Under the pieces are notes generated by a model that was given only the letters and a program-made list of their open reading frames with translations, did no database searches and had not been told where the DNA came from. The position numbers were made by a program, and so were the translations under genes. Shown piece by piece: positions 11,677-26,507 of a stretch of DNA of 64,000 nt. Each line of letters starts with the position of its first letter. The first letter of the stretch is position 1. This DNA comes from Gammaproteobacteria bacterium (GTDB lineage: Bacteria; Pseudomonadota; Gammaproteobacteria; Eutrophobiales; Eutrophobiaceae): contig OZ244905.1 in assembly GCA_965221695.1 (NCBI GenBank), positions 2,368,001 to 2,432,000 of the forward strand, in the 5' to 3' direction.

Positions 11677-12648
11677 CTACTCTGCCGATATCATTATCGC
11701 CGCGGTTGCAACAATGTCCTCTATACTTGCTCCGCGTGATAAGTCTGCAACAGGTTTAGCAAATCCTTGCAGTATAGGGCCGATGGCATCGGTCTGACCA
11801 AGGCGCTGGACGAGCTTGTAGGAAATGTTACCGGCATTCAGATCCGGGAATATCAACACATTAGCATGCCCGGCGACAGGACTTGCAGAGCCTGACTTGA
11901 TTTTCGAGATAGCAGGAACGAGCGCGCTATCTGCTTGTAGTTCTCCATCGATTGCGAACTCAGGAGCCCGCTCTTGAGCGAGCGACACTGCGCGCACGAC
12001 TTTATCGACATGCGGATGACGGGCGCTGCCTTTTGTAGAGTACGAGAGCAATGCCACGCGAGGCGCGTCATCAAGTAATTTCTCCGCATTTCTGGCCGAA
12101 GAAATAGCAATATCGGCGAGTTCTTCCGCTGTGGGATCAGCGTTGACCGCACAGTCCGCAAAAACAAGTGGTTTGCCATCCTTTGGGAGCATGATAAAAA
12201 AACTTGATGGCGTCTGAATCCCGTCGGCAAGACCGATGCATAACCGGGCCGCCTCAATAACCTTGCGTGTCGGGTTGTCAATACCTGCAAGGAGCGCATC
12301 AGCATCGCCTGCTCTTACCATCATCGCTCCATAGTAAAGCGGTTTGTGCATGGCCCGAAGCGCCATTCCCGGGTTCACTTTGCCGCGCTGGCTTGCGTAT
12401 AGGCGGGCATAGTTTTCCAGATGGCTGCTTGTTTCAGGCTCGACAATCGAGCAGGCTCTGATCGGTATGTTGTTATCCGCTGCCAATGCCTCGATACGCC
12501 TGGGCTTGCCGATAAGGCACACTTCAGCTATCCCTTCAATGGCAATTCTGCTCGCGGCCTCAAGCATCCGAATATTATCGCCCTCCGGAAACACAAGACG
12601 CGCCGACGTTGCCCGCGCGCTTTCTATGAAACGCTGAACAAATGTCAC
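11677..12648 (-). CDS. pta: Phosphate acetyltransferase (short form)
   Basis: [36 protein letters not shown]. Confidence 0.93.
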
Positions 12649-12657
12649 GTTTTTCCG

Positions 12658-13794
12658 CTAACGGTCTTCCATAGATATGTAAGGACGCCGTTCCGGACCG
12701 TTATAACTTAACAGTGGCCTGATCAGAATATTGTTTTCCATTTGTTGCCGCACCTGTAATGTCCAGCCCGGGACACGCCCTGCCGCGAAGATAGGGACAA
12801 AGATATCCTGTGGTATGCCGTGCAAGTGATAAATCACACCGGAGTAAAAATCGACATTGACATTGACACCATGGCGCGCATAAGGCTGCATCGCTTCGAC
12901 CAGGGCCTGTAGTATCCGATTCCAGTGCGGTTCACCCTTCTCTCTCGACAGGCGTTCGACACCATCACGCAGGTGTTTGGCTCGTGGATCTTCCGCGCGG
13001 TAAACCCGATGACCAAAACCCATGATAGGTTCTCTGTTTTTTCTTCTGGTCTTGACGTACTCCTTTGCATTCTCAGGAGCGCCAATTTCACGCGCCATCT
13101 TTATAACGTTTTCAGCAGCTCCGCCATGCGCGGGTCCGGATAACGCCGCTATGGCTGCTGTTATTGCGGCATGCAGGTTGGCATCTGTTCCGGTGACAAC
13201 TCTCGCTGTGAACGATGACGCATTCGATCCATGTTCAGCATGCAGGATAAAGTCAAGATCCATCAGTCTTGCAGCATTTTCGCTGGGCGGTGCGCCATGT
13301 AACATATACAGAAAATTGGCTGCATGACTTAAATCCATGTCCGGCGAAATCAGGGGTTTGTCAATCCTGACTCTATGGATAGCAGCCACGATCATCGGCA
13401 GTTGCGAAGTGAGTCGAACACCTTTTCGCAGAATTGCTTCTCTCGAACAGTCTTCAACCTCCGGATCATAAGCGGCCAACGCAGATACTGCCGTGCGCAG
13501 TATGTCCATAGGATGAGCATCAGCCAGGGTTCTGATGATGTCATAGAGAGAATCCGGCAGTACCCGCTCCGTCTTGAGTTGTTCATCGAATGCGCTGTAT
13601 TCTGCGTTGTTCGGCAACTCACCATGCAACAGCAGGTAGGTGGTTTCTTCAAAACTGGAATGCGTGGCCAGATCATCAATCGAATAGCCGTAATAGCGGA
13701 GTTCACCAGCCTGGCCGTCAATGAATGTTGCCGGTGATCGGTCGAAATAAACTCCTTTCAAACCGCGATGAATTCTGACGCCATCATCAGCCAT
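12658..13794 (-). CDS. Citrate synthase / 2-methylcitrate synthase family
   Basis: HAEHGSNASSF, GPAHGGA, MGFGHRVY, NVDFY. Likely start is ATG 13794; the longer ORF overlaps mauD. Confidence 0.92.
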   Translation of the reverse strand: MADDGVRIHRGLKGVYFDRSPATFIDGQAGELRYYGYSIDDLATHSSFEETTYLLLHGELPNNAEYSAFDEQLKTERVLPDSLYDIIRTLADAHPMDILRTAVSALAAYDPEVEDCSREAILRKGVRLTSQLPMIVAAIHRVRIDKPLISPDMDLSHAANFLYMLHGAPPSENAARLMDLDFILHAEHGSNASSFTARVVTGTDANLHAAITAAIAALSGPAHGGAAENVIKMAREIGAPENAKEYVKTRRKNREPIMGFGHRVYRAEDPRAKHLRDGVERLSREKGEPHWNRILQALVEAMQPYARHGVNVNVDFYSGVIYHLHGIPQDIFVPIFAAGRVPGWTLQVRQQMENNILIRPLLSYNGPERRPYISMEDR

Positions 13795-13814
13795 AAGTTT
13801 TACCTTGCCCCGTG

Positions 13815-14426
13815 TTAGTCTGCCTCTGCGGAGTGATACTTCTTCACATATTCCTGGATGGATGCCACGCCCTGTTCCTTTGCCTCGAACAGGCTTTCGA
13901 GGTGTTCCCTGGAATTGATGATGCCCATGGTGACAACCTTGCCCTGCTCGTCGATCAAGACCGAGTACGGCAGTTTGCCTACCCCGTAACTGCGGCCCAG
14001 GATTTCCGACAATATGTAATCGAAGCGTGACAGCTTCTGCTGTTCGATGAACTTGCGGTGTTGTTCTACCGGGCCGTCGCTGGCCAGCACGATATCCAGC
14101 CAGGCGCGTTCCTCCTTGTGTGCCGAGAACAGCGCCGGTAGCAGCGTCTTGCACACCGGACAATCGGGAGCGAGAAAGAACAGCAACAGGCTGCGCGCCG
14201 GCTCGCGGACTCCGCCGACACGGATTTTTTTATTCTCAATGGTCAACAAATCCATTTCCGGGGCGGCATCTCCGGGGCGCAGGGTCTGGTTCACCATCAG
14301 CGCGCCGGCCGGGGCCACCCGCTCGTAGAGCACGCCGATCTGCCTCACCAGGGCAAATACCATTAAGCCAAGTATTACCACGATGATCCAGAGCAGGAGG
14401 TTGGAGACGATCAGGGCTTCAAGCAT
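13815..14426 (-). CDS. mauD: Methylamine dehydrogenase accessory protein MauD (membrane-anchored thioredoxin fold)
   Basis: RQIGVLYERVAPAGAL, CPVCK, NSREHLESLFEA...SIQEY. Confidence 0.92.
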   Translation of the reverse strand: MLEALIVSNLLLWIIVVILGLMVFALVRQIGVLYERVAPAGALMVNQTLRPGDAAPEMDLLTIENKKIRVGGVREPARSLLLFFLAPDCPVCKTLLPALFSAHKEERAWLDIVLASDGPVEQHRKFIEQQKLSRFDYILSEILGRSYGVGKLPYSVLIDEQGKVVTMGIINSREHLESLFEAKEQGVASIQEYVKKYHSAEAD

Positions 14427-14970
14427 GGAATTCCTCGCGGACCAACGATTTCAGCAGGTCTTTGTTCACCAGCAACTGGTTGATGATATTGTAGAGCAGG
14501 CAACCCATGACGGCCGCCAGGATGATCGTCAGCCAGTCGAACCAGAGCAGCACGCGCGGCAGCGTCTGACTGCCGGCAACACCAGCGAGCAACAGCAGCA
14601 AAGCGTTGCGCGCGATCATCCACTCGCTGATGGTTTGTTTCTGGGCCGGGCCGCCGCATCCACAATCGATACTGCGGCGTCCGCGCAGCAGGTTGATGGC
14701 TATCGCGATCATGTAGACACACAGCAGCGCGCCGGCCGAGAACGCCGCGAGGCGCGCCACCGCGGGTATCAGCAGCGCTGCCCCGGTCATGATTTCAACC
14801 ACGGGAATCAAGTAGACGCCTTGGCGGGCCAAACCCTCCGGCAGGATTTTATAATTCATCAAGGTCGTCGCAAACTCTGCCGGCGCCTTGCACTTGTGCA
14901 GTCCGGCCAGCACGAATACGTAGCTCAGGACCAGCGCGGCAATGAGATTGAGGACGGGGTCGAAGATCAT
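14419..14970 (-). CDS. mauE: Methylamine utilisation membrane protein MauE (MauE/DoxX family)
   Basis: Multiple TM helices, NLLRGRRSIDCGCGG and ARNALL motifs; overlaps mauD by 8 bp. Confidence 0.9.
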   Translation of the reverse strand: MIFDPVLNLIAALVLSYVFVLAGLHKCKAPAEFATTLMNYKILPEGLARQGVYLIPVVEIMTGAALLIPAVARLAAFSAGALLCVYMIAIAINLLRGRRSIDCGCGGPAQKQTISEWMIARNALLLLLAGVAGSQTLPRVLLWFDWLTIILAAVMGCLLYNIINQLLVNKDLLKSLVREEFHA

Positions 14971-14991
14971 GATGCCAGGTAACCTTTGGGA

Positions 14992-16359
14992 TTAAGTCAG
15001 AGTTTCCAACGCTACAGGGCGGTCGCTAAAGTAGTTTGCCGCGGTCTTCTGCCTTACCTCATCTTCCGTGACCCCTGGCAGCAACTTAACCAGGCGCATC
15101 CCCGTGTCACCGAAATGAAATACCGCCAGGTCCGTGATCAGGATATCGACGGCCTTGCGTGCGGTCAATGGCAGGTCACAACGGGACGCTACTTTAGAGT
15201 TGCCGTTCCTGTCGCAATGGGTCATGGTCACGATCAGCTTGCCGGCGCCGGACGCCAGGTCCATCGCGCCACCGACCCCGAGCAGCGGTTTGCCGGGCAC
15301 GGCCCAGTTGGCCAGGTTGCCCTGTTCGTCCACCTGCAGGCCGCCCATGATGGCCACATCCACGTGACCGCCCCGGATCATGCCGAAAGAGGCGGCGCTG
15401 TCGAAATAGCTGGAGCCGGGCAGCGCGGTAACCGGAACCTTGCCGGCATTGATCGGATACTCCATCGCGCCGCCGGATTCGGGTTCCGGCCCTACGCCCA
15501 GCATACCGTTTTCGGAGTGCAGGATGATGCCGTCTTCCGGCTTGATCAAGTCCGCCACCAGGGTGGGAATACCGACTCCCAGGTTCACGATATCGCCCCG
15601 CTGCAACTCGGCCAGCGCCAGCCTGGCCATCGTCATACGGGCTTCATCCACCTTTTTCCGGCTTGCCGCCACTGATGCCGAGGTGCCCAGGTGCTCAGGG
15701 TTGAGGCTGGCCTGTACCAGGTAGTCGACGAAACAACCGGGAGTATGAATATGATCCGGGTCCAATTCGCCGGCAGGGACAATCTCCTCCACTTCAGCGA
15801 TGACCAGATCGGCGGCCGTCGCCGCGGCCGGGTTGAAATTGTTTTCCGTCATGCGGTATTGCAGGTTGCCGATGGTATCGGCGCGCCAGGCCCTGATGAC
15901 GGCAACATCGGCGCGCAGCGCGGGAACGAATACCATCTCTGTTCCGTTGATGACCCTGGTTTCACAGCCTTCCGCCAGCGGCGTTCCGGCCGCAGTGGGT
16001 GTGAAGAATCCCCCCAGACCGGCTCCACCGGCGCGGATGGCTTCCGCCAGCGTGCCCTGGGGCAGAAGTTCAAATTCGACTTTCCCGGACTGCGCCGCCA
16101 CCACGGCTTCGAGGTTGCTGGTGAAGAATGACCCGACAACTTTTTTCAACTGGCCCTTACGCAGGCAGAGCCCGCCGGCTAGGCCGGGTTCGCCCACATT
16201 GTTGCCGATATAGGTAAGCCCGGTTACATCGGTTTCGGCAAGCGCATGCATGACGTTGGTCGGGTTGCCCGTCATACCGAAACCGCCAACGATCAACACA
16301 TCGCCGGAGCGCACCTTGGCGGCAGCCTGCTCTAAGGTTATCTGCGGTACGGTTCTCAT
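14992..16359 (-). CDS. 3-oxoacid CoA-transferase, fused alpha+beta subunits
   Basis: Alpha motifs VGGFG and PQGTLAE; beta motifs NLGVGIPT, catalytic SENG and GVGGAMDL. Confidence 0.92.
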
Positions 16360-16428
16360 CGCGCATATATTATAGGAAGCGCTGAACAAGTCCATTCGTG
16401 TATCAGGTACAAGACGGGAGCCGTTACA

Positions 16429-17043
16429 TCAACGGGTAGGGGACAGGGAACACTGGCCGCGATCGGGGTTTGGTTCCACTGCGGGCAGGTCGAGGATGTG
16501 TTTCAGTTCATCGGCGCCGCCGACATAATCGCCGCCCAGCCAGATCTGCGGTACCGTGACCGGGGTTTTCGGGCCGATGATTGGTTTTACCCGGGCCAGC
16601 ATTTCGTACAGCGCTCGGGGGTCCTTGACAACATCATGGTAACGGTAGTCAACGTTGGCTTGCTCCAGGTAGGTTTTGGCGCGCACGCAATGCGGACAGG
16701 TGGCCTTACCGTAGATATGATTGCCTTCCACGGGAATTTTGCTGACGGCTTCCTCAATCACGGATTGGGTCAGTACACCGCGGTTCAGCGCCGCGCCCTG
16801 GGAGATCAGTTTGCCGTTGACCAGTACTATGGGGGCATGCCAGCCCCCCTTCAGCAGGGGTTTCCACCATTCCGTAAGCCAGTCGCGCAGGTCAAGGTCG
16901 ACCTGTAAGCCGTCCAGGTCGATATCGATACAATCCTGGATAATGTCCTTGGTCAGGGCACACTCTCCGCAGGGTATTTTTACCTTGAAAGGCCCCCAGG
17001 CGCCGGCCCAGCGGAATACGGTGATGTTTACGGGGTTTTTCAC
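16429..17043 (-). CDS. Two-domain thioredoxin-fold/glutaredoxin protein
   Basis: N-terminal CGEC...HAPIV domain; C-terminal glutaredoxin CPHC...TVPQIW...YVGG. Confidence 0.8.
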   Translation of the reverse strand: MKNPVNITVFRWAGAWGPFKVKIPCGECALTKDIIQDCIDIDLDGLQVDLDLRDWLTEWWKPLLKGGWHAPIVLVNGKLISQGAALNRGVLTQSVIEEAVSKIPVEGNHIYGKATCPHCVRAKTYLEQANVDYRYHDVVKDPRALYEMLARVKPIIGPKTPVTVPQIWLGGDYVGGADELKHILDLPAVEPNPDRGQCSLSPTR

Positions 17044-17110
17044 GGTTAAGTCTTCTCAGAGGTTCCAACGGTACAGGGATGTGCAAGTCCTGGATGAACT
17101 TGTTCAGAGC

Positions 17111-18172
17111 TTACACTGGCATTGGTGGATGGCCGTGCCAGGCGTTCTCCAATAGCGCCCGTACCCGCGCGCGGGTGACCGGTTCGGGGTTGTTAATCGG
17201 TTTCTCCACGGTTACCGCGGCGGCTTCATCCAGGTCTGTCTGTTTTATCCCTATGTCTTTCAACGCGATCGGCGCGCCGAGTTTCCGCGCCAGCTCAAAC
17301 AGGCCGGTTGCGGCGTCATTGACGCCCAGGGCTTCCGCAATGCGTTGTGTTGCTTCCGGCCTGGCGTCGCTGTTGTAGGCCACACTATGCGGCAGCAGGA
17401 TCGTGTGGGTCTCGGCATGGGGGGTGTTGAACGTGCCGCCGAAGGTGTGGCACAGGCGATGGTGCAAGCCGGTCGTGCCGGTACCCAGCGCAGCGCCGGC
17501 CTGGCTGGCGCCGTACAGGGCTTCGGCGCGTGCGACCACGCTGCCGGGATCCGAAATAATAAGAGGCAAACTGTGCGCCAGGGCGCGTATGCCTTCCAGG
17601 GCCAGCGCCGCGCTGATGGGGTTGGCGTCCTGCGCGGCCGCATTGGCAACCGCCTGGGCCATCGCGTTCATGCCGCTGGCCGCGGCGAATGCGGGCGGCA
17701 TGGTCAGCGTCAACTCCGGGTCATAAATCGTCAATGTAGGCACGACGATATTGTCGCGCCGGGTCACTTTGCGCTCGTTTCGGGTCACCGCCCAGAGGTT
17801 GGTCATCTCCGAACCGGCGTAACTGGTGGGCAGCACGATGTTGGGCAACTCCAGGTGGAACGCGAGAGCCTTGCCGAGACCGGTGGTGGAACCACCGCCA
17901 ATGGAAACGGAGCAGTCTGCGCCCAGACGCGTTACCTCCTCCATAGCCTGATCTAGCGTTTCGCCGGGCACATGCATCATGGCTTGATCGAACAGGCCAG
18001 CCGCCTTGTCTCCGAGTTGTTCGACGATCTCCCGTCCGGTGTCCGCCTGGTGCGGTGTTGTCAGAACCAGGGCGCGGGAATAGCCGAGTTTCGCCAGCTC
18101 TTCCGGCAGGCGCTTACGGGCGCCGGCTGCAAAGATGATGTTCCAGGGCAGCGCGGCAAACTGAAAGTTCAT
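17111..18172 (-). CDS. Maleylacetate reductase (Fe-ADH family; PcpE/LinF/HapF-like)
   Basis: GGGSTTGLGKA, PTSYAGSEMT, GLHHRLCHTFGG, PHAETH. Confidence 0.93.
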   Translation of the reverse strand: MNFQFAALPWNIIFAAGARKRLPEELAKLGYSRALVLTTPHQADTGREIVEQLGDKAAGLFDQAMMHVPGETLDQAMEEVTRLGADCSVSIGGGSTTGLGKALAFHLELPNIVLPTSYAGSEMTNLWAVTRNERKVTRRDNIVVPTLTIYDPELTLTMPPAFAAASGMNAMAQAVANAAAQDANPISAALALEGIRALAHSLPLIISDPGSVVARAEALYGASQAGAALGTGTTGLHHRLCHTFGGTFNTPHAETHTILLPHSVAYNSDARPEATQRIAEALGVNDAATGLFELARKLGAPIALKDIGIKQTDLDEAAAVTVEKPINNPEPVTRARVRALLENAWHGHPPMPV

Positions 18173-18175
18173 TCG

Positions 18176-19144
18176 TCAGTCAGACCTGATTTCACCGATC
18201 ACTTTGAGCACTTCATCTTTGTTGGCTTCAATTTGCGGCGACATCATCAGTTTTGTCCCCAGGGTTTCATAAGGTTCGTCGCAGGTAAACGCAGGTTTGT
18301 GCGAACAGCACGCTTCAAACAACGCGCCTGAGGGCGTGCGGATATAAATGGAATCGAAATAACCGCGGTCTTTCACATCCGAGAAATCCGTGTAACCCAG
18401 GCCCTCGGTAAAGAACTTGATCGCGTCCTGCTCGGCGCGGCTGGGCACATTGTAGGCCATGTGGTGGATCGCGCCTTCTCCGACGGTCCAGGAACCCGGT
18501 TTGCGGTCCGGTTCGATTTCAAAATCGGTATAGGCGCCGCTGCCGCCTTCGCCCATACTGTAACGCACCAGGTTGCTGTCATCCGCCTCCTTGCGCGATC
18601 CCCAGGCCACTTCCAGGAACTCTGCCATGAACTCCATGTCGCGGGTGGACACGCCGGCCGCATGGGTGCCGCGGATCATGTGTTCGGCAGGAACCGGCCC
18701 GTCGGAATAGGGCGTTCGGTCATCCTCTTCGACGCCTACCATGGACATGCGGATGTTGTGGGGGGATCGGAAATCGAGGTGTTTTTCACCGAAGCGTTCG
18801 GTCTCCGTCACGTCAAAACCATGTTCCTTCAGGCGTTTGTGCCAGTATGGCAGCGAATCCGGCGCTACGGACAAGCTCACATAACTCACCTGGCCGCTGC
18901 CTTCCTTGGCCTTGACGCCAATGTGCGCGACCGGGAACGTGGTGAGCAACGTGCTTTCTTCACCCGTGTCATTGCCGTAGTACAGGTGGTAAACCGGTGT
19001 TGCGCCATCATAGAACAACGTGCGTTTGACGCATTTCAGGCCCAGTGTCTTGGTGTGAAAATCGAAGTCTTCCTGCACGTTGCCGACGCCGATAGTGATA
19101 TGGTGATGGCCGGTCAGACTCGTGCCTGGCAGTTTATCGGACAT
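18176..19144 (-). CDS. (Chloro)hydroquinone ring-cleaving dioxygenase, PcpA/LinE-type VOC family
   Basis: HHITI, VKRTLFYDG..PVYHLY, GSWTVGEGAIHH, EGLGYTDFSD.K.RGYF.SIY.RTP.G.LFE match blocks recalled from Sphingobium PcpA/LinE. Confidence 0.88.
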   Translation of the reverse strand: MSDKLPGTSLTGHHHITIGVGNVQEDFDFHTKTLGLKCVKRTLFYDGATPVYHLYYGNDTGEESTLLTTFPVAHIGVKAKEGSGQVSYVSLSVAPDSLPYWHKRLKEHGFDVTETERFGEKHLDFRSPHNIRMSMVGVEEDDRTPYSDGPVPAEHMIRGTHAAGVSTRDMEFMAEFLEVAWGSRKEADDSNLVRYSMGEGGSGAYTDFEIEPDRKPGSWTVGEGAIHHMAYNVPSRAEQDAIKFFTEGLGYTDFSDVKDRGYFDSIYIRTPSGALFEACCSHKPAFTCDEPYETLGTKLMMSPQIEANKDEVLKVIGEIRSD

Positions 19145-19281
19145 GATGGTTATCCTCCGGGAAAGCTGTGATTGCCGTATTGTAGCTGACGCTGTTTTTA
19201 ATATAGCACCCCCGCAATAATAAAACACGCGCGATGCTATACTATCGCGTGTTCAACACAGATACATTACGGTAAAGCAGA

Positions 19282-20268
19282 ATGGGATTGTTGATAGACG
19301 GCAAGTGGCACGACCAGTGGTATGACACCGAAGCCAACCAGGGGCGTTTCATCCGTTCCGAATCCCGGTTTCGCAACTGGGTAACACAGGATGGCTCTGC
19401 CGGCCCTTCCGGCACGGGAGGTTTCAAGGCAGAGTCCGGCCGTTACCACCTGTATGTCTCCCATGCGTGCCCCTGGGCCAACCGCACCATGATCTTTCGC
19501 AGTATCAAGGGTTTGAAGGACATGGTTTCCGTTTCCGTCGTGCACTGGCACCTGGGCGACCACGGCTGGACGTTTGAACCGGGCGAGGGTGTTATTCCTG
19601 ACCCCGTTCATAATGCAACATATCATTACCAGGTATATACGGCAGCCGATCCCGAGTATAGCGGCCGGGTGACCGTGCCGGTGTTATGGGACCTGCAAGG
19701 CAACACCATCGTCTCCAATGAATCATCGGAGATCATCCGCATGTTCAACAGCGCATTCGACAAGGTCGGCGCCGCGCCGGGTGATTATTACCCGGAACCC
19801 CTCCGGGATGAGATAGACGGGATCAACAGCCGGGTTTACAACACCTTGAATAACGGCGTGTACCGGGCCGGGTTCGCCACCACCCAGGAGGCCTATGAGG
19901 AGGCGGTACACCCGTTGTTCGATACCCTGGACTGGTTGGAAGACCGGCTTCAGAGCCGCCGTTACCTGACCGGCAATCAAATCACCGAGGCGGACTGGCG
20001 GCTGTTCACGACCCTGATACGTTTCGACCCGGTGTACGTGAGTCATTTCAAGTGCAATATCCGGCGGCTGGTGGATTATCCGAATTTATGGGGGTATACG
20101 CGCGATCTGTATCAGCAACCGGGCGTTGCGGAGACGATCAACATGAAACACATCAAGCATTCCTATTACGGCAGTCAAACCATGGTGAACCCGACCGGCA
20201 TTGTTCCTGTCGGTCCTGATTTTCACCCGGAAGCGCCGCATGATCGGCATTTATTGGCTGCAACATAA
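19282..20268 (+). CDS. yqjG: Glutathionyl-hydroquinone reductase (GST Xi class, PcpF/YqjG)
   Basis: GRYHLYVSHACPWA, RVTVPVLWD, NNGVY, RFDPVY. Confidence 0.93.
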   Translation: MGLLIDGKWHDQWYDTEANQGRFIRSESRFRNWVTQDGSAGPSGTGGFKAESGRYHLYVSHACPWANRTMIFRSIKGLKDMVSVSVVHWHLGDHGWTFEPGEGVIPDPVHNATYHYQVYTAADPEYSGRVTVPVLWDLQGNTIVSNESSEIIRMFNSAFDKVGAAPGDYYPEPLRDEIDGINSRVYNTLNNGVYRAGFATTQEAYEEAVHPLFDTLDWLEDRLQSRRYLTGNQITEADWRLFTTLIRFDPVYVSHFKCNIRRLVDYPNLWGYTRDLYQQPGVAETINMKHIKHSYYGSQTMVNPTGIVPVGPDFHPEAPHDRHLLAAT

Positions 20269-20321
20269 AGCGCCTGTGATAGGATATGAAATGAGTGGTA
20301 CGGGAACCAGGAGACAACATC

Positions 20322-20822
20322 ATGTCTGTGACAACCTTGTTCGGCAGTATTGACAGCTATGAAAAGGGAGGCGTGGAGATCACCGGCAATGAAGATGCCC
20401 GTGATTACCTGTTTTCCAATATGTTCGAGGTGGCCGGCAGTGCCCGGCCTTGGGAACGGGTTGTCGTTGCGAAAAACCTGGAGAATACCATAGAGTGCAT
20501 TCGCGCCGAGGGCGACAGTCCCTGGTATATTTGCAGCCATGATGAGACCGCTTTGCTGATGCAGGGCAGTATGCAGGTGCGGTTCATACAGCCTTCCGAC
20601 CCGGCGCTGGTTCCGCCCGGGGAAAAAGAGGGATCAGTCCAGCTTGCCGGGCAGCCGGAAGGCCGGGTGATGGGCCATGTCAATGCCGGCCGGGGCCACC
20701 TGACGCTGCTGCCGGCAGGCGCCGCCTACCAGTTTTGCGCCGGGGAATTGAGCGTGATATTACTGCAAACCATCCAGGGCGATGAGTCCATTGAGAAGTG
20801 GGCTGACATCTGCCAGCGCTGA
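20322..20822 (+). CDS. hapC: Hydroquinone 1,2-dioxygenase small subunit (HapC/PnpC-like)
   Basis: FGSIDSYEKG, YLFSNMFEVA, VAKNLE, CSHDE, LLPAGAAYQF, EKWADIC. Confidence 0.85.
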   Translation: MSVTTLFGSIDSYEKGGVEITGNEDARDYLFSNMFEVAGSARPWERVVVAKNLENTIECIRAEGDSPWYICSHDETALLMQGSMQVRFIQPSDPALVPPGEKEGSVQLAGQPEGRVMGHVNAGRGHLTLLPAGAAYQFCAGELSVILLQTIQGDESIEKWADICQR

Positions 20823-20840
20823 TACGGGGGAGAGACGATT

Positions 20841-21857
20841 ATGGCTGCCACCGCGGAAAAAATAAACGAATTGCCGGTTCTTGCCGATGCACACAGCGCA
20901 AGCGAACCGCACCCGACCAACGGCTACAGACGCTTCGAGATCGGCTCGTTCACATTCACCCGGGATGAATATTTTGCCCATATCCGGTGTCCGACCGGGA
21001 CACATGTGATGGACGTGGAGAATTTCCTGCGCTCCCTGATGCGGGATGTGGCCTGGGGCTTTTTCTACGGTTGGGTGAATTTTGACGAGGTGTTCGGCAC
21101 GGTGAACAACTACGGCACGGTGGATGTGTTCATGGGCGCGTACAACCAGGCCTATAAGGACTCCGGCACAGACTTTACCGAACGCTTCGATGCGGACGCG
21201 CTCTTCGCCTGTTTCAAGTCGTTGTTATTGGACTGGACCAATGCCGGCTTTGACCCCTTTGCCGCGCCCCTGGAGACCGGCAGCGCCCGTGGGCCGAAAA
21301 ACGGCAACAACGATGAGGCCGTCAATTTTCAGCGGGAGCTGGCGGAGCGTTTCGTCGGCCTGCCGGGCGACAGTCCCATCCGTTCCGATGAAAACGGGCG
21401 CCCGGTCAACCGGCAGTTCGCCGATGTGGACCAGTCCGAGCCGGCGGTCCACGCGGAGGCCGGGTTCGAAGGCCAACTGGCGGCGTTCAACCTGTTCAAA
21501 TACCTGTCCCGTTCGCCGGTTACCTGGAACCCGTCCATTGTTTCCGTGGTAAAGAGCAGCGCTTACTGCCCGACATCGGAAGAGCACATCCTGCCGGTGG
21601 ACCACGGCAACGACCGGGTGGAGTGGTTCATCCAGATGTCCGATGAGATAACCTGGAAGGTGGCTGACAAGAATACGGCGGCGCCGATGTCCGTGGTAAC
21701 CATGAAGGCCGGTGATGTGGCCTGTATGCCGGCGGACATCCGCCATCGCGGGTTTTCCCCGAAGCGCTCCATGCTGCTGGTCTGGGAGAACCTGACGCCG
21801 GGCCTGGAGAAACGCTACGCAAAAGGTGAGTTGCCGCCCACGCCAGTGACGTTTTAA
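20841..21857 (+). CDS. hapD: Hydroquinone 1,2-dioxygenase large subunit (HapD/PnpD-like cupin)
   Basis: RDVAWGFFYG, WNPS, LPVDHGNDRVEWF (His/Glu Fe ligands), MPADIRH.G.S.KRSMLLVWEN. Confidence 0.88.
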   Translation: MAATAEKINELPVLADAHSASEPHPTNGYRRFEIGSFTFTRDEYFAHIRCPTGTHVMDVENFLRSLMRDVAWGFFYGWVNFDEVFGTVNNYGTVDVFMGAYNQAYKDSGTDFTERFDADALFACFKSLLLDWTNAGFDPFAAPLETGSARGPKNGNNDEAVNFQRELAERFVGLPGDSPIRSDENGRPVNRQFADVDQSEPAVHAEAGFEGQLAAFNLFKYLSRSPVTWNPSIVSVVKSSAYCPTSEEHILPVDHGNDRVEWFIQMSDEITWKVADKNTAAPMSVVTMKAGDVACMPADIRHRGFSPKRSMLLVWENLTPGLEKRYAKGELPPTPVTF

Positions 21858-21874
21858 CAGCTTGCTTTGTTTGA

Positions 21875-21900
21875 CTGGACTCTCGCTTCCGCGGGAGTGG
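21875..21900. repeat. REP-like palindrome / bidirectional terminator between convergent genes
   Basis: CTGG-ACTCTCGC-TTCC-GCGGGAGT hairpin, a degenerate form of the common CTGGATTCCCGC...GCGGGAATGAC repeat. Confidence 0.5.
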
Positions 21901-21932
21901 TCGTTATTCGGTAATACCAGGCTGAGAAAATA

Positions 21933-23033
21933 CTAACGCCAGACTTCCCGCGCGATTTCAACGATCATCTGTAGTTTTTCCCACTGCTGGTCTTCGGTCA
22001 GCAGGTTGCCTTCTTCGGTGGATGCGAACCCGCATTGCGGGCTGAGGCAGAACTGGTTCTGATCGGCAAAGCGGGCTGCTTCCTCTATGCGGCGCAAAAT
22101 GGCGTCTTTTTCCTCCAGGTCGCCGGATTTGGACGTTACCAGACCCAATACGATCCGTTTGTCGCCCCGCGGCAGGAACCGCAAGGGTTCAAAGCCGCCG
22201 GCCCGTTCGGTGTCGTATTCCAGGAAATACCCGTCATAGCCGATTTCCCCCAACAGGATCTCCGCCACCGGATCATAGCCGCCTTCCGCGATCCAACTGG
22301 AGCGGAAGTTGCCGCGGCAGATATGGGTGGTGACCGCCATATCCTCCGGTTTGTCCTGTAACGCGTGATTGATCATGTCGGCATAGACGCGCGGCAGCGA
22401 TTCGGGATCATCGCCGCGCTCCCGGGAAGCCCGCCGCTCTTTTTCGGAGCAAAGATACGCCCACGAGGTTTCATCGAACTGCAGGTAACGGCAGCCGGCG
22501 GCGTAGAAGGCGTGCACGGCCTGGCGATACGCTTCTGCGGTATCGGCAAAAAACTCGTCCAGACCGGGATAGACCTGCTTGCTGATCGAGGCCCTGCCGC
22601 CGCGGAAGTGCAGCACAGTGGGTGATGGTATCGTCATCTTGGCCGTGACCCCGGCGACGCTGTGCAGGTAGCGGAAATGATCGAGCATGAAATGCCCGTC
22701 AAAACCGACCTTGCCGGTCACCGCAATATTCTGCGACTTGGTCTGTACGCCATGAAACTGTATGCCCTCGCTGGTTTCGACCAGTTCCACACCGGACAGC
22801 CCGGCGAGGAAATCGAAGTGCCACCAGGCGCGTCTGAATTCCCCGTCAGTAACGGCTTGCAGGCCAACGGCTTCCTGGCGCGCCACCACTGTGCGAATGC
22901 ACTCATCTTCAATCGATTTGAGGGTATTTGCATCGATTTTGCCGTCTGCAAACTCGGCACGGGCGGTTTTCAGATGGGGCGGCCGCAACAAGCTGCCCAC
23001 GTGATCAGCCCGAAAAGGAGGCTTGGAAGTCAT
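21933..23033 (-). CDS. Cobalamin-independent methionine synthase II family (core MetE C-terminal-like)
   Basis: RADHVGSLLRP, TDGEFRR, Zn motifs HICRGN, FLEYD and SPQCGFAS. Confidence 0.88.
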   Translation of the reverse strand: MTSKPPFRADHVGSLLRPPHLKTARAEFADGKIDANTLKSIEDECIRTVVARQEAVGLQAVTDGEFRRAWWHFDFLAGLSGVELVETSEGIQFHGVQTKSQNIAVTGKVGFDGHFMLDHFRYLHSVAGVTAKMTIPSPTVLHFRGGRASISKQVYPGLDEFFADTAEAYRQAVHAFYAAGCRYLQFDETSWAYLCSEKERRASRERGDDPESLPRVYADMINHALQDKPEDMAVTTHICRGNFRSSWIAEGGYDPVAEILLGEIGYDGYFLEYDTERAGGFEPLRFLPRGDKRIVLGLVTSKSGDLEEKDAILRRIEEAARFADQNQFCLSPQCGFASTEEGNLLTEDQQWEKLQMIVEIAREVWR

Positions 23034-23131
23034 TGGTGTGAGTCCCCCGGTAGTGATAACAGTCTTTCAATTTTAACCTGAATATGCCAAACTCGCATGG
23101 TCTGAATCGTCTGTATCGTCATTTTGCCGGC

Positions 23132-24502
23132 ATGAATGAAGCTATCACGCAGTTAACCGAAAAATTAGGACCGGATGTTATTCTGACCGGCCCTGAGGTA
23201 TCCACGAAATACCATGCCGACAGCTCGGGAGAAACCGCCCATCCCCCGGTAGCCGTTGCCCGACCAGCATCCACCGGGCAGATATCCGACATCCTGCGCA
23301 TCTGTTCATCCGCCGGACAGAAGATAGTGGTGCAGGGCGGTCTGACCGGGTTATGCGGCGGCGCCACACCACAAGGAGAAGAGTTGGCGCTATCCCTGGA
23401 GCGCATGAGCGGAATCGAGGAACTGGACGAGGCATCCATGACCATGACGGTGCTTGCAGGTACCCCCCTGCAAGCCATTCAGGATGCCGCGGATGCGGCA
23501 GGGTTCCTGTTTCCCCTGGACCTGGGCGCACGCGGTTCGTGTAATATCGGCGGAAATATTGCTACCAATGCCGGCGGCAACGAAGTGATCCGCTTCGGCA
23601 TGACCCGCAACCTGATCCTGGGCCTTGAAGTGGTATTGGCCGACGGCACGGTTATCTCCTCATTGAACAAGATGCTGAAGAATAACGCCGGTTATGACTT
23701 GAAGCACCTGTTCATCGGCTCTGAGGGCACCCTGGGCGTGGTCACGCGCGCGGTCTTGCGGCTGTTCGCGAAACCGCAAGGCAGGAGCACGGCGCTGGTC
23801 GCGCTGACTTCTTTTGCCGATGTGGTGCGCTTCCTGCATTTCATGGGCCGGGAGTTTGGCGGCGCGCTCACTTCATTCGAAGTGATGTGGGACAGCTACT
23901 ACAATTACATCATTGAGCATGTTTCGTCAGTCAGCAGCCCGTTTGACGAGCGCTATCCGATCTACGTATTGACCGAAACCAACGATAAATCCGGCCAAAG
24001 CCGCCTCGAAAACGCACTTGCGAGTGAATTGGAGGAAGAACGGATACTGGACGCCGTGATTTGCCAATCCGAACGCGAACGCCAGGCCGTCTGGGCCATA
24101 CGCGATGGCGTTGGCGAAGCCCTGGCCGTGATCCAGGACAATGCCAATTTTGACGTGAGCGTTCCCATTAACAGCATGGCCGATTTTCTGGCGCAGCTTG
24201 AAACGGAGATCCACGCGTTGCTGCCGCGCACAGAGCTGCTGGTTTTCGGGCATATCGGTGACAGTAACCTGCATCTGGTGTTCACCGTTGAACGGAAGGA
24301 TGACAGGCAAACGGTCTATGATGTGGTATACAGACAGGTGGGCGAATACAACGGTTCAATTTCCGCCGAACACGGTATCGGCATGATGAAACGGCAGTAC
24401 CTGCATCAATCCCGGAGCGCAGAAGAACTGGCATTGATGAAGCTGTTAAAGCAGACTCTGGACCCGAACAATATCCTGAACCCTGAACGGGTCCTGGGCT
24501 AA
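23132..24502 (+). CDS. FAD-linked oxidoreductase (D-2-hydroxyglutarate/D-lactate dehydrogenase family)
   Basis: GGNIATNAGG, KNNAGYDL, GSEGTLG, FGHIGDSNLH, SISAEHGIG. Confidence 0.9.
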   Translation: MNEAITQLTEKLGPDVILTGPEVSTKYHADSSGETAHPPVAVARPASTGQISDILRICSSAGQKIVVQGGLTGLCGGATPQGEELALSLERMSGIEELDEASMTMTVLAGTPLQAIQDAADAAGFLFPLDLGARGSCNIGGNIATNAGGNEVIRFGMTRNLILGLEVVLADGTVISSLNKMLKNNAGYDLKHLFIGSEGTLGVVTRAVLRLFAKPQGRSTALVALTSFADVVRFLHFMGREFGGALTSFEVMWDSYYNYIIEHVSSVSSPFDERYPIYVLTETNDKSGQSRLENALASELEEERILDAVICQSERERQAVWAIRDGVGEALAVIQDNANFDVSVPINSMADFLAQLETEIHALLPRTELLVFGHIGDSNLHLVFTVERKDDRQTVYDVVYRQVGEYNGSISAEHGIGMMKRQYLHQSRSAEELALMKLLKQTLDPNNILNPERVLG

Positions 24503-24504
24503 CG

Positions 24505-25359
24505 CTACGCATTGTTCCCGCCGGCTGATTTTTTGAAGGCCTGGTAAATCGAATCCAACTGATGCCACGCAGGGCCGGGTTTGCCGCCGCTAATCGTCCG
24601 GCCGTCGAGTCTGACCACCGGCGCTATGCCCAGCGAGGAACTGGTGAGCCATATTTCATCGGCCTGTTGCAAGCCGGCCAGGCTGATAGGGACTTCCCGG
24701 CATTGATATGCCGATTGGCCGACCAGTTCCACGACCAGGTCGCGGGTGATTCCCGGTAGCAGCCGATTACTCTTGGGCGGGGTGCAGACAGCATCTCCGG
24801 TCACGATGAACACATTGCTTGCCGCACCCTCGGTGATATGTCCGTCCCGGTGTAGAATGGCCTCGATGGAACCGTCTTTCTCCCGTGCATATTGTTTCAA
24901 CATTACGTTCGGCAACAGCGCCACCGCTTTGATATGACAATACTCCCAGCGGATATCCTTATGCAGCACAGCGCTGACGCCATGGCTCACGTCCATCTCC
25001 GGCGATCGTTTGCAGTAGATAAAAACAGTCGGGGTGGAATCTGACTGGAAGAAATGGCTGCGTTCGGCTACTCCCCGGGTAACCTGGATGTAAATCGATG
25101 AATCATCCGACACCCGGTTCCGTCTCAGCAGCTCATCTATCAGTGACTGCCATGTTTCGCGGTCGTAATCCAGACGCAGGGAGATACCATCCAGGCTGTT
25201 GCGCAACCTTTGCAGGTGTTCAGCCAACCTGAACGGTGCGCCGGAAAATACCGGAATGACCTCGTAGACTCCGTCGGCAAAAATAAAACCCCGGTCCAGC
25301 ACAGGGACCTGCGCCTGCTCCAGCGGGATGAATTTGCCGTTCAGGTATACTGTCGTCAA
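24505..25359 (-). CDS. dat: D-amino acid aminotransferase (class IV PLP)
   Basis: DRGFIFADGVYEV, HIKAVALL, EGAASN, LPGITR. Confidence 0.9.
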   Translation of the reverse strand: MTTVYLNGKFIPLEQAQVPVLDRGFIFADGVYEVIPVFSGAPFRLAEHLQRLRNSLDGISLRLDYDRETWQSLIDELLRRNRVSDDSSIYIQVTRGVAERSHFFQSDSTPTVFIYCKRSPEMDVSHGVSAVLHKDIRWEYCHIKAVALLPNVMLKQYAREKDGSIEAILHRDGHITEGAASNVFIVTGDAVCTPPKSNRLLPGITRDLVVELVGQSAYQCREVPISLAGLQQADEIWLTSSSLGIAPVVRLDGRTISGGKPGPAWHQLDSIYQAFKKSAGGNNA

Positions 25360-26507
25360 TTTCGGTTTTGATTCAGCAGTTTGATGTGGTCTCTGAGCCG
25401 GATAAGGAAACTGCCTGCCGGAATGGTTTCAGACGCGACCAGCGGCATGATTGCAATAACCTCTTCATCCAGCGACAGCTCCAGTTGCCCCAGTTTCTGC
25501 CCTGCTTCAATCGGCGCAGTCGGGTTTTCCTCAACCGTCATTACCGTCTCAATTCGGTCGTAGTGTGCCTTGGCCATGGTCATTACCAGCTCTTCTTCCA
25601 CCACGAGTTCCAGGCTGTCGCGTTCCCCTTTCCATACTTTTATGTCCGTTACCTTCTCGCCGGCGCGGTAGAGTGTCCTGGTTTCAAAATACCTGTAGGC
25701 ATAACTCAGCAATGCTTGCGTGGCCTTGGTCCTGGCAGCCTCGCCGGATGTTCCCATGACTACCGAGACCAGGCGTACTCCATCCCGCAGCGCCGAGGCT
25801 ACCAGGCAGTAACCTGCGCTTTCGGTATGGCCGGTCTTTATCCCGTCCACGCTCGCATCATTCCACAACAGGCTGTTCCGGTTCGGTTGTTTTATATTGT
25901 TGTAGGTGAATTCCTTTATCGAATGCAGCGCATAGACCTCAGGATAATCCCTGATCAGGGCACGCGCCAGAATCCCCAGGTCCCCGGCCGTCGTATAATG
26001 ATTTTCGTCAGGCCAGCCGGAACTGTTCACGTAATGGCTGTGCTTCATCCCCAGCTCGGCCGCGTATTGGTTCATCAGGTCGGCGAAAGCCTCTTCAGTA
26101 CCGGAAATGTGCTCCGCCAATGCCACGCTGGCATCATTGCCGGATTGGATTATCACGCCTTTCAACAGGTCTTCGACACTGACCTGCTTCCCTGCCTCAA
26201 TGAACATGCGCGATCCTCCCATGCGCCATGCCCGCTCACTGACGGTTACCTGGTCGGTCATCGAGATATGGCCGCCGGAGATTTGGCTGGCTGCCACGAA
26301 GGCGGTCATGATCTTCGTGAGGCTGGCGGGGTCTACCCTGCGGTCTGTATTTTTTTCGGCCAGGTAAGACCCGGTGTCCGCGTCCATGATCAAGTAGGAG
26401 ACAGCTTCGATCTCCGGTGGCGGCGGCACGACTGTGACAGCAGCGGAGGGACTTATCAGGCTGATACCGACAAGCAGGGCAAGCAGTTTAACTCTGAGGT
26501 AATTCAT
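25356..26507 (-). CDS. dacA: D-alanyl-D-alanine carboxypeptidase (PBP5/6)
   Basis: ASLTK, SGN and KTG motifs; signal peptide. Confidence 0.93.
   Translation of the reverse strand: MNYLRVKLLALLVGISLISPSAAVTVVPPPPEIEAVSYLIMDADTGSYLAEKNTDRRVDPASLTKIMTAFVAASQISGGHISMTDQVTVSERAWRMGGSRMFIEAGKQVSVEDLLKGVIIQSGNDASVALAEHISGTEEAFADLMNQYAAELGMKHSHYVNSSGWPDENHYTTAGDLGILARALIRDYPEVYALHSIKEFTYNNIKQPNRNSLLWNDASVDGIKTGHTESAGYCLVASALRDGVRLVSVVMGTSGEAARTKATQALLSYAYRYFETRTLYRAGEKVTDIKVWKGERDSLELVVEEELVMTMAKAHYDRIETVMTVEENPTAPIEAGQKLGQLELSLDEEVIAIMPLVASETIPAGSFLIRLRDHIKLLNQNRN

Follow-up and report, generated by a model that had tools for sequence, protein, structure and literature searches.

The present analysis concerns a divergent cluster of hydroquinone ring-cleavage genes in a 64,000-nucleotide stretch of a Gammaproteobacteria genome (the window; G000:C1:2368001-2432000). 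The host genome, G000, consisted of a single contig of 3.54 Mb. Two divergent gene sets separated by a gap of 134 bp were located between 14.4 and 21.9 kb of the window. An original prediction, made from the sequence alone, had named seven genes in this region and read them as a halo-hydroquinone catabolic system pairing two unrelated ring-cleavage dioxygenases. All seven genes were found with the same boundaries, and their identities could be confirmed by profile matches and by matches to the sequences of solved structures. The features of the cluster, numbered from the first letter of the window, were as follows.

14419–14970, minus strand: MauE/DoxX-like membrane protein (Pfam MauE, 97 bits), closing the minus-strand operon 21 bp past the CoA-transferase gene.
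14992–16395, minus strand: fused alpha and beta 3-oxoacid (3-oxoadipate) CoA-transferase, 467 amino acids (TIGR02429 and TIGR02428).
16429–17043, minus strand: two-domain thioredoxin-fold/glutaredoxin protein, 204 amino acids (Pfam Glutaredoxin, residues 110–174).
17111–18172, minus strand: maleylacetate reductase (MAR) of the Fe-ADH family (303 bits to the solved MARs 3w5s and 3hl0).
18176–19147, minus strand: type I hydroquinone dioxygenase (PcpA/LinE type, VOC superfamily; 261 bits, E 1e-76 to PcpA, 4huz).
19148–19281, no strand: divergent intergenic region of 134 bp; the TetR gene found here in relatives is missing.
19282–20268, plus strand: Xi-class glutathionyl (GS)-hydroquinone reductase (YqjG/PcpF type), opening the plus-strand operon.
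20295–20822, plus strand: small subunit of a type II hydroquinone 1,2-dioxygenase, HapC/PnpC/HqdA type (5m21_A, E 4e-45; 4zxa_A, E 8e-44).
20841–21857, plus strand: large (catalytic) subunit of the same enzyme, HapD/PnpD/HqdB type (5m21_B, E 4e-137; 4zxa_W, E 3e-129; PF18191, 175 bits).
21879–21898, no strand: terminator-like hairpin 3' of hapD (pattern match only).

The PcpA-type protein, a single chain of approximately 320 amino acids, could be aligned to PcpA (4huz) over residues 10–311. It scored 164 bits (E 5e-47) to MhqO (3oaj) and shared 43.7% identity with LinE across 98% of the query. The metal-site residues of PcpA have been described as His11, His227, Tyr266, and Glu276 (PMC3204407), and all four were identical in the HMMER alignment to the enzyme of the window, as read by eye. 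The open reading frame (ORF) extends as far as a GTG at 19228 (18176–19228), but the alignments of relatives begin at about residue 22, and the true start is likely the ATG at 19147. The type II dioxygenase was recognised by its two adjoining genes (18 bp gap), each similar to a solved subunit, and by the PnpD N-terminal domain. The HapD translation contained an H-x-N-x3-E stretch followed by a later His, which may correspond to the iron ligands of the large subunit. The GS-hydroquinone reductase matched YqjG (3r3e; 443 bits, E 1e-131) and PcpF (4fqu; 437 bits, E 5e-130) over its full length and carried the CPWA motif with the catalytic Cys, which together place it in the Xi class.

For the MAR, the next-best match of another kind was 122 bits, and a match of 327 bits was obtained to 3jzd, a structure without a product name. 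Its assignment is based on the Fe-ADH fold, the nearest solved MARs, and the ring-cleavage context, and homologues occupied the pnpF position in 45 of 80 HapD loci surveyed (the 80 best loci from a genome collection, with fetched flanks). Both halves of the CoA-transferase exceeded the profile cut-offs (TIGR02429, 208 bits, residues 20–229; TIGR02428, 274 bits, residues 252–454), and the gene comes after MAR in relatives as well as in the wider-clade contigs L084, L085, and L096. In the glutaredoxin protein, the N-terminal region of about 100 residues belonged to no recognised family and bears a second CxxC motif. The genes of the cluster are single-copy in G000 except for the CoA-transferase, since a second, two-subunit CoA-transferase was present elsewhere.

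The rest of the genus was represented by 22 genomes. Of these, 18 contained the PcpA-type gene, and 17 contained both dioxygenases. In 15 of these 17, the two genes lay on the same contig within 8 kb of each other (1.4–8 kb apart); the exceptions were G037, a 760-contig assembly in which they fell on different contigs, and G042, in which they were 284 kb apart. The arrangement is thus conserved in the genus and not due to chance. The closest relatives among the matches listed were all uncultured metagenome-assembled genomes.

Outside the genus, the pairing was uncommon. Eight of the 80 HapD loci held a PcpA homologue, six of them from the genus together with L016 (58% identical) and L019 (60% identical). 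Among the same loci, a HapE-type aldehyde dehydrogenase (ALDH) was found at 45, MAR at 45 (mostly just behind the ALDH at the hapE position), CoA-transferase at 9, and GS-hydroquinone reductase at 5, all five being close relatives of the window (HapD 84–93% identical). L016 contained both dioxygenases together with MAR, a glutathione S-transferase (GST), an ALDH, and an HpaB-type monooxygenase, which scored 665 bits to the oxygenase component of a solved 4-nitrophenol 4-monooxygenase and 466 bits to 2,4,6-trichlorophenol 4-monooxygenase. GSTs stand before hapCD in L015, L016, and L019. When 400 other genomes were sampled evenly across the class, HapD was found in three, a PcpA-like gene in three, and both in one (G254, from another family), where PcpA on the minus strand and HapC and HapD on the plus strand were adjacent and divergent; within 20 kb of this pair, no MAR, CoA-transferase, HapE, or GS-hydroquinone reductase was found. 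Of the records in the plasmid collection, 345 contained PcpA-like genes and 23 contained HapD, and no record with both appeared among the matches listed (40 of the 345 PcpA-like records), which does not exclude co-occurrence. Rare as it is, the pairing thus recurs, with the same divergent layout each time and in three further records outside the genus (L016, L019, and G254).

A literature search by titles and abstracts, covering few subscription journals and no supplements, retrieved no description of both dioxygenase types in one cluster, and type I and type II hydroquinone dioxygenases are treated as separate families in the reviews consulted (PMC3222310, PMC3727088). On this point the original prediction was borne out: the joining of type I and type II enzymes in one divergent cluster is real, conserved in the genus, uncommon beyond it, and not found described at the level of titles and abstracts. 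The cluster represents a conserved hydroquinone/quinone lower pathway, composed of known enzyme kinds in an arrangement that was not found described.

In the canonical hap/pnp layout, hapE and MAR stand directly behind hapCD in one operon. The window departs from this, as hapD is followed by the terminator-like hairpin and then by a MetE-like gene on the opposite strand. As the original prediction had pointed out, the cluster itself lacks a semialdehyde dehydrogenase, a GST of the LinD/PcpC kind, a phenol monooxygenase, and a LysR regulator; the missing dehydrogenase was taken there to fit halogenated substrates. This argument fails at the level of the genome. When the ALDH behind pnpD in the Pseudomonas nitroreducens locus L021 was used as the query, a HapE/PnpE-type ALDH was found at G000:C1:1729046-1730542, approximately 640 kb from the cluster and beside recQ, with 69% identity to the query. 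Its match to the solved PnpE (4go3/4go4), a gamma-hydroxymuconic semialdehyde dehydrogenase, reached 772 bits, compared to 465 bits for the next ALDH of another kind. It was 82% identical to the ALDH directly behind hapD in L010 (which is G047, of the same genus) and 72–78% identical to the hapD-adjacent ALDHs of L012 and L014–L017. A quick maximum-likelihood tree of 29 rows, with support given by the Shimodaira–Hasegawa-like approximate likelihood ratio test (SH-aLRT), placed the unlinked ALDH as sister to that of L010 (SH-aLRT 99) within a clade of 19 hapD-adjacent ALDHs (99), and nine other ALDH paralogues of G000 fell outside this clade.

The distribution of the two genes agreed with the tree. 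Of the 22 other genus genomes, 19 carried hapD, the same 19 carried hapE, and both genes were absent from G039, G044, and G052. These genomes are kin and not independent; the match between hapD and hapE is nonetheless exact. Judged by its similarity, the unlinked ALDH is the HapE/PnpE orthologue, and because it nests with the hapD-adjacent ALDHs and co-varies exactly with hapD, the HapCD branch has its own, ordinary dehydrogenase. The presence of hapE elsewhere in the genome had been named in the original prediction itself as evidence that would speak against it. More generally, the absence of a gene from a cluster is no safe basis for inferring chemistry until the whole genome has been searched.

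These results bear directly on the view that the whole cluster is dedicated to halo-hydroquinones, with both dioxygenases cleaving beside a halogen and no need for a dehydrogenase. The cluster has no ALDH, the enzymes PcpA, LinE, and PcpF stem from pathways for chlorinated compounds, and type II enzymes are described as able to cleave halogenated hydroquinones (PMC3222310). Against these points stand the HapE/PnpE orthologue in the genome, which tracks hapD exactly over the genus, the adjacency of hapE and hapD that persists in G047 and is seen in 45 of the 80 HapD loci, and the glutaredoxin, which is a strain-specific relocation, as shown below. With hapE present elsewhere, this view is largely refuted and is considered very unlikely.

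The region around the unlinked hapE (L082, G000:C1:1719000-1738999) also contained a Rieske ring-hydroxylating oxygenase alpha subunit, an arylsulfatase-like protein, a benzaldehyde-dehydrogenase-like ALDH, and a ferredoxin-reductase-type flavoprotein, and genes of aromatic or aryl-sulfate metabolism may be scattered around it. A 3-oxoadipyl-CoA thiolase, likewise unlinked to the cluster, was found at 1781652–1782866 of G000 (NF006001, 644 bits against a cut-off of 622).

Genomes that keep a single dioxygenase revealed how the pathway is divided. G047 carried HapC-HapD-HapE divergent from MAR-CoA-transferase and had no PcpA; in G042, MAR-CoA-transferase stood opposite HapCD, with PcpA alone elsewhere. 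Conversely, G039 (98% complete, one contig) carried TetR, a flavin monooxygenase, PcpA, MAR, and CoA-transferase without HapCD and without HapE. In G125, of a sister genus, HapCD-HapE was located at one site and PcpA at another. The contig L085, from outside the order (PcpA 76% identical), showed LysR divergent from PcpA-MAR-CoA-transferase-thiolase and no ALDH on the contig, and PcpA-MAR-CoA-transferase was also found in L084 and L096. The metagenome survey made with PcpA covered 19 loci, mostly short ones. MAR and the CoA-transferase therefore form the shared trunk, to which HapCD (with HapE) and PcpA are separable feeders. Single-feeder genomes thus serve as a natural experiment showing that hapE belongs to the HapCD branch. 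Only the PcpA feeder is dehydrogenase-independent, a conclusion drawn mainly from one genome (G039) and one contig (L085). The dehydrogenase-free chemistry proposed originally for both enzymes would accordingly be retained for the PcpA branch, where G039 has no HapE and L085 no ALDH on the contig, and given up for the HapCD branch, where hapE is present.

Comparison with relatives also revealed what this strain has lost and gained. A 224-amino-acid TetR-family gene (TetR_N and TetR_C_7) lay between PcpA and the plus-strand operon in eight related loci (L002, L004–L008, L083, and L084). It was present in 15 of the 22 genus genomes, in each case beside PcpA where the two could be compared (in G037 they were on different contigs). 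No TetR homologue was found anywhere in G000, nor in G054, and this strain has lost the repressor. Expression is therefore probably constitutive. An inverted repeat was located at 19230–19249 in the divergent intergenic region, in a pattern scan that overall performed no better than shuffles. A class-A flavin aromatic hydroxylase (PF01494 and Rng_hyd_C) stood beside PcpA in four of the 22 genomes (G039, G049, G051, and G055).

The glutaredoxin, which the original prediction had counted as a member of the system, was absent at all 80 HapD loci. It was found in 21 of the 22 genus genomes, full-length and elsewhere in the genome in 19; G044 gave a partial match, and G054 contained a remnant within the cluster. 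The flanks of the native glutaredoxin site in G053 mapped to two far-apart places in G000. In the sister strain G054 (97–99% nucleotide identity), the in-cluster gene was cut to residues 150–204, its last 55 codons, and was followed by a repeat of about 580 bp with copies elsewhere in G000. Contigs from three public runs contained a junction that skips 16595–17117, the sides of which were short (20–34 letters), and one contig spanned 16552–17083, across the left end of the skipped stretch, and matched the window. The glutaredoxin is thus a strain-specific relocation or insertion and no integral part of the system.

The repeat of about 580 bp, at approximately 8780–9390 of L102 (G054), includes a coiled-coil-like ORF of 168 amino acids, and its copies in G000 lie near C1:862200, 1081203, and 2928071. 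It occupies the MAR/CoA-transferase junction in G054, which seems to be a rearrangement hot spot. In G039, the same junction was occupied by a TonB-dependent receptor gene and a GCV_T (aminomethyltransferase-family) gene (L112, 11992–15857).

On the gene identities, conservation, co-variation, and modularity observed here, the cluster is best read as a hydroquinone/benzoquinone lower pathway in which two ring-cleavage feeders converge on one trunk, to which we assign a probability of roughly 60%. Substrates, fluxes, and regulation could then be proposed as follows. Benzoquinones would form spontaneous adducts with glutathione, and the GS-hydroquinone reductase would free the hydroquinones from them; this role is proposed because of the known activity of the family, described as acting in quinone reduction (PMC5063366). 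HapCD would convert hydroquinone into 4-hydroxymuconic semialdehyde, which the unlinked HapE would oxidise to maleylacetate. The PcpA-type enzyme would cleave hydroquinones with a leaving group beside the hydroxyl, most likely a halogen, giving (halo)maleylacetate without the need for a dehydrogenase. MAR would then reduce maleylacetate to 3-oxoadipate, the fused CoA-transferase would activate it, and the unlinked 3-oxoadipyl-CoA thiolase would complete the route into central metabolism. The strain of the window would represent a stripped version of this system, with no TetR and probably constitutive expression, no adjacent flavin hydroxylase, and a glutaredoxin acquired by relocation.

Halogenated substrates are plausible for the PcpA branch only. 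The two characterised relatives, PcpA and LinE, are described as acting on chloro-hydroquinones (PMC3204407), and the branch does without the dehydrogenase. Similar gene sets were found on plasmids of bacteria that degrade chlorophenols. Plasmid pRK1-5 of Cupriavidus basilensis DSM 11853, the record of which gives enrichment on 2,6-dichlorophenol, carried an FAD-monooxygenase/VOC/hydrolase/MAR set with 38% identity to the L007 monooxygenase, 42% to the PcpA of the window, and 46% to its MAR. Plasmid pACHL02 of Pseudarthrobacter chlorophenolicus A6 carried FAD-monooxygenase/VOC/.../MAR/thiolase/CoA-transferase. In L087 (PcpA 71–73% identical), an adjoining GST was 40% identical to LinD. This marine metagenome contig (137–4872) combines the PcpA-type gene with LysR, the LinD-like GST, an intradiol (catechol/hydroxyquinol-type) dioxygenase, and a sulfatase, and from its gene content it looks like a natural lin/pcp-like cluster. 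Copley and colleagues already view pcpA and pcpE as a standard lower pathway that serves natural compounds (PMC3318906).

A more specific proposal is that the divergent PcpA and HapCD pair is a recurrent, laterally shared module of uncultured Proteobacteria (genus g1, L016, L019, and G254). The type I enzyme would then act on hydroquinones substituted at position 2, whether natural bromo- or chloro-hydroquinones or conjugates with glutathione; such substrates would need no semialdehyde dehydrogenase and would evade or inactivate the type II enzyme. We advance this proposal tentatively and consider it less likely than not. If it is true, the two enzymes together would enable marine bacteria associated with hosts or algae to mineralise organohalogen quinones of natural origin.

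Several points weigh against the two-feeder reading or against halogens as its substrates. No LinD-like GST was detected in G000 (query L087 GST, E 1e-10; PcpC itself was not queried), and a phenol 4-monooxygenase like that of L016 or L007 was likewise lacking (the L007 hydroxylase gave at best 24% identity; PcpB was not queried). The search for a hapE and a halophenol monooxygenase that the original prediction had suggested thus returned the former but no monooxygenase of these kinds. No transporter was found in the cluster either. By these related-query searches, the PcpC/LinD GST and PcpB-type dehalogenating hydroxylase that characterise a pcp/lin system were not found in G000; PobA and an HpaB-family protein were present elsewhere in the genome. 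A PcpA gene without HapE was seen in a single genus genome, G039, and its operon with a TonB receptor and a GCV_T protein (possibly a demethylase) points to methoxy- or hydroxy-hydroquinones over halogens. A division of labour between the two dioxygenases is not required, because HapCD-type enzymes are described as also cleaving chlorinated and alkylated hydroquinones (PMC3222310). MhqO and MhqE, relatives in the PcpA family, are described as serving quinone and methylhydroquinone detoxification (PMC6798810). A promoter and terminator scan of the cluster was uninformative: 5 and 9 sites were found, where shuffled sequences would lead one to expect 3.7 and 7.8. No RNA run was listed as containing the stretch.

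Some of these points raise the alternative that the PcpA branch acts on hydroxyquinol, methoxy-hydroquinone, or S-conjugated hydroquinones and not on halogenated ones. If the ring were opened next to a hydroxyl, alkoxy, or thioether group, maleylacetate, or its ester or thioester, would likewise arise without a dehydrogenase. The GCV_T family, which includes aromatic O-demethylases, is represented together with the TonB receptor inside the PcpA-MAR-CoA-transferase operon of G039, where the two may provide uptake and demethylation of methoxylated aromatics. An esterase or phospholipase directly follows the VOC gene in L094, in the LinE locus, and on the A6 and pRK1-5 plasmids, and an MhqO-type gene beside a MAR gene has been proposed as a possible hydroxyquinol dioxygenase (PMC12673573). 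However, the window cluster has no esterase, L087 has a separate intradiol dioxygenase beside its PcpA-type gene, which argues against redundancy for hydroxyquinol, and the characterised relatives PcpA and LinE are described as acting on chloro-hydroquinones (PMC3204407). On balance, such substrates are considered unlikely to be those of the branch.

A second alternative places defence against quinone stress over growth: electrophilic (benzo)quinones from the habitat would be trapped by glutathione, reduced by the GS-hydroquinone reductase, and destroyed by two redundant ring-cleavage enzymes, as a Gram-negative counterpart of the MhqR/QsrR regulons. The GS-hydroquinone reductase at the head of the HapCD operon, the GSTs before hapCD in L015, L016, and L019, the repressor-type (TetR) regulator of relatives, and the lack of both an L016/L007-type hydroxylase in the genome and a transporter in the cluster would fit this role, and the LinE homologues MhqE and MhqO are described as quinone-detoxification enzymes (PMC6798810). 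The full route to acetyl-CoA and succinyl-CoA has nevertheless been kept (MAR, CoA-transferase, and thiolase), which goes beyond the needs of detoxification, and in L085 the thiolase lies within the same operon. Defence as the main function is held to be improbable; the defence and growth readings are not mutually exclusive. A lower pathway fed by two ring-cleavage branches remains the preferred reading.

Several features at the borders of the cluster were also noted. The MauE/DoxX gene was kept behind the CoA-transferase in L002, L004–L007, and L083, and its product may have a role in the pathway. A link of this gene to quinone regulons through B. subtilis MhqP was considered and left unused, since MhqP is called an azoreductase in PMC12673573. 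An ORF of 199 amino acids antisense to it (14383–14982, plus strand) had no family match and is probably spurious. Directly past hapD, on the opposite strand, the MetE-like gene (21933–23033, minus strand) was assigned to the "cobalamin-independent methionine synthase family" (NF005085, 616 bits) and holds the same place in six related loci (L002–L005, L007, and L008). An FAD-linked oxidase at 23084–24502 (plus strand) was considered as an upstream enzyme of the vanillyl-alcohol-oxidase/p-cresol type and rejected, as its nearest matches were D-2-hydroxyglutarate (265 bits) and D-lactate (159 bits) dehydrogenases. It lies downstream of hapCD throughout the genus, directly behind hapE in G047, and is probably an unrelated neighbour.

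Base composition gave no clear sign of a recent foreign island: the guanine-plus-cytosine (GC) content of the cluster was 0.589 compared to a genome mean of 0.550 (standard deviation 0.033), at the 92.5th percentile of 7-kb windows. Third-position GC jumps near 14.2 kb, from 0.45–0.52 in citrate synthase and pta (11677–14163) to 0.67–0.79 in the cluster and the following genes (14419–26507). The citrate synthase ORF was called from a TTG start, which adds about 130 N-terminal residues.

The enzymes of the cluster are all of known kinds, and no biochemistry is overturned by it. Two dioxygenase families that are kept together across an uncultured genus, and that recur in three outside records, raise the question of why a cell would need both. 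In addition, a large environmental clade of PcpA-like proteins, named just "VOC/glyoxalase" in databases, gains a pathway context beyond polluted soils, and this clade bears on the origin of the lower pathways for pentachlorophenol and lindane.

Among known systems, the hapCDEF/pnpCDEF clusters (Pseudomonas fluorescens ACB, Pseudomonas sp. WBC-3, and Burkholderia sp. SJ98, with hqdAB of Sphingomonas sp. TTNP3) share the HapCD-type two-subunit dioxygenase, the HapE/PnpE dehydrogenase, and MAR, and the HapD of the window was 58–62% identical to plasmid-borne homologues of Burkholderia, Sphingobium, and Pseudomonas. Unlike in these systems, hapE is unlinked here (approximately 640 kb), MAR is divergent and accompanied by a type I dioxygenase and a fused CoA-transferase, and there is no LysR regulator or upstream monooxygenase. 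An Xi-class GS-hydroquinone reductase stands at the place where pnp clusters presumably have a benzoquinone reductase.

With pcpA-pcpE (and pcpF) of Sphingobium chlorophenolicum and linE/linEb-linF of Sphingobium indicum UT26, the cluster shares the type I VOC dioxygenase with its metal-site residues, MAR, and a PcpF-type GS-hydroquinone reductase, and this branch would likewise need no semialdehyde dehydrogenase. The enzyme of the window is moderately similar to its counterparts (261 bits to PcpA; 43.7% identity to LinE). The PcpC/LinD dehalogenase and PcpB/PcpD are missing, a type II dioxygenase is joined to the cluster, and the regulator in relatives of the window is TetR and not LysR.

The pRK1-5 and pACHL02 clusters follow the same module logic as the PcpA branch of the genus (regulator, class-A flavin hydroxylase, PcpA-type gene, and MAR) and have no ALDH; pACHL02 of A6 additionally carries a thiolase and a CoA-transferase. 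By comparison, the strain of the window has no hydroxylase and no regulator (present in 4 and 15 of the 22 relatives, respectively) and no esterase, whereas its CoA-transferase is fused and a HapCD operon is attached.

The MhqR/QsrR regulons of Bacillus subtilis and Staphylococcus aureus (mhqED, mhqNOP) are described as directing LinE-like dioxygenases against hydroquinones and quinones, with a repressor and thiol chemistry (PMC6798810). MhqO is more distant from the enzyme of the window than PcpA is (164 against 261 bits), and MAR, CoA-transferase, and a type II dioxygenase belong to the cluster described here but not to those regulons. The hosts of the MhqR/QsrR regulons use bacillithiol, and not glutathione, chemistry.

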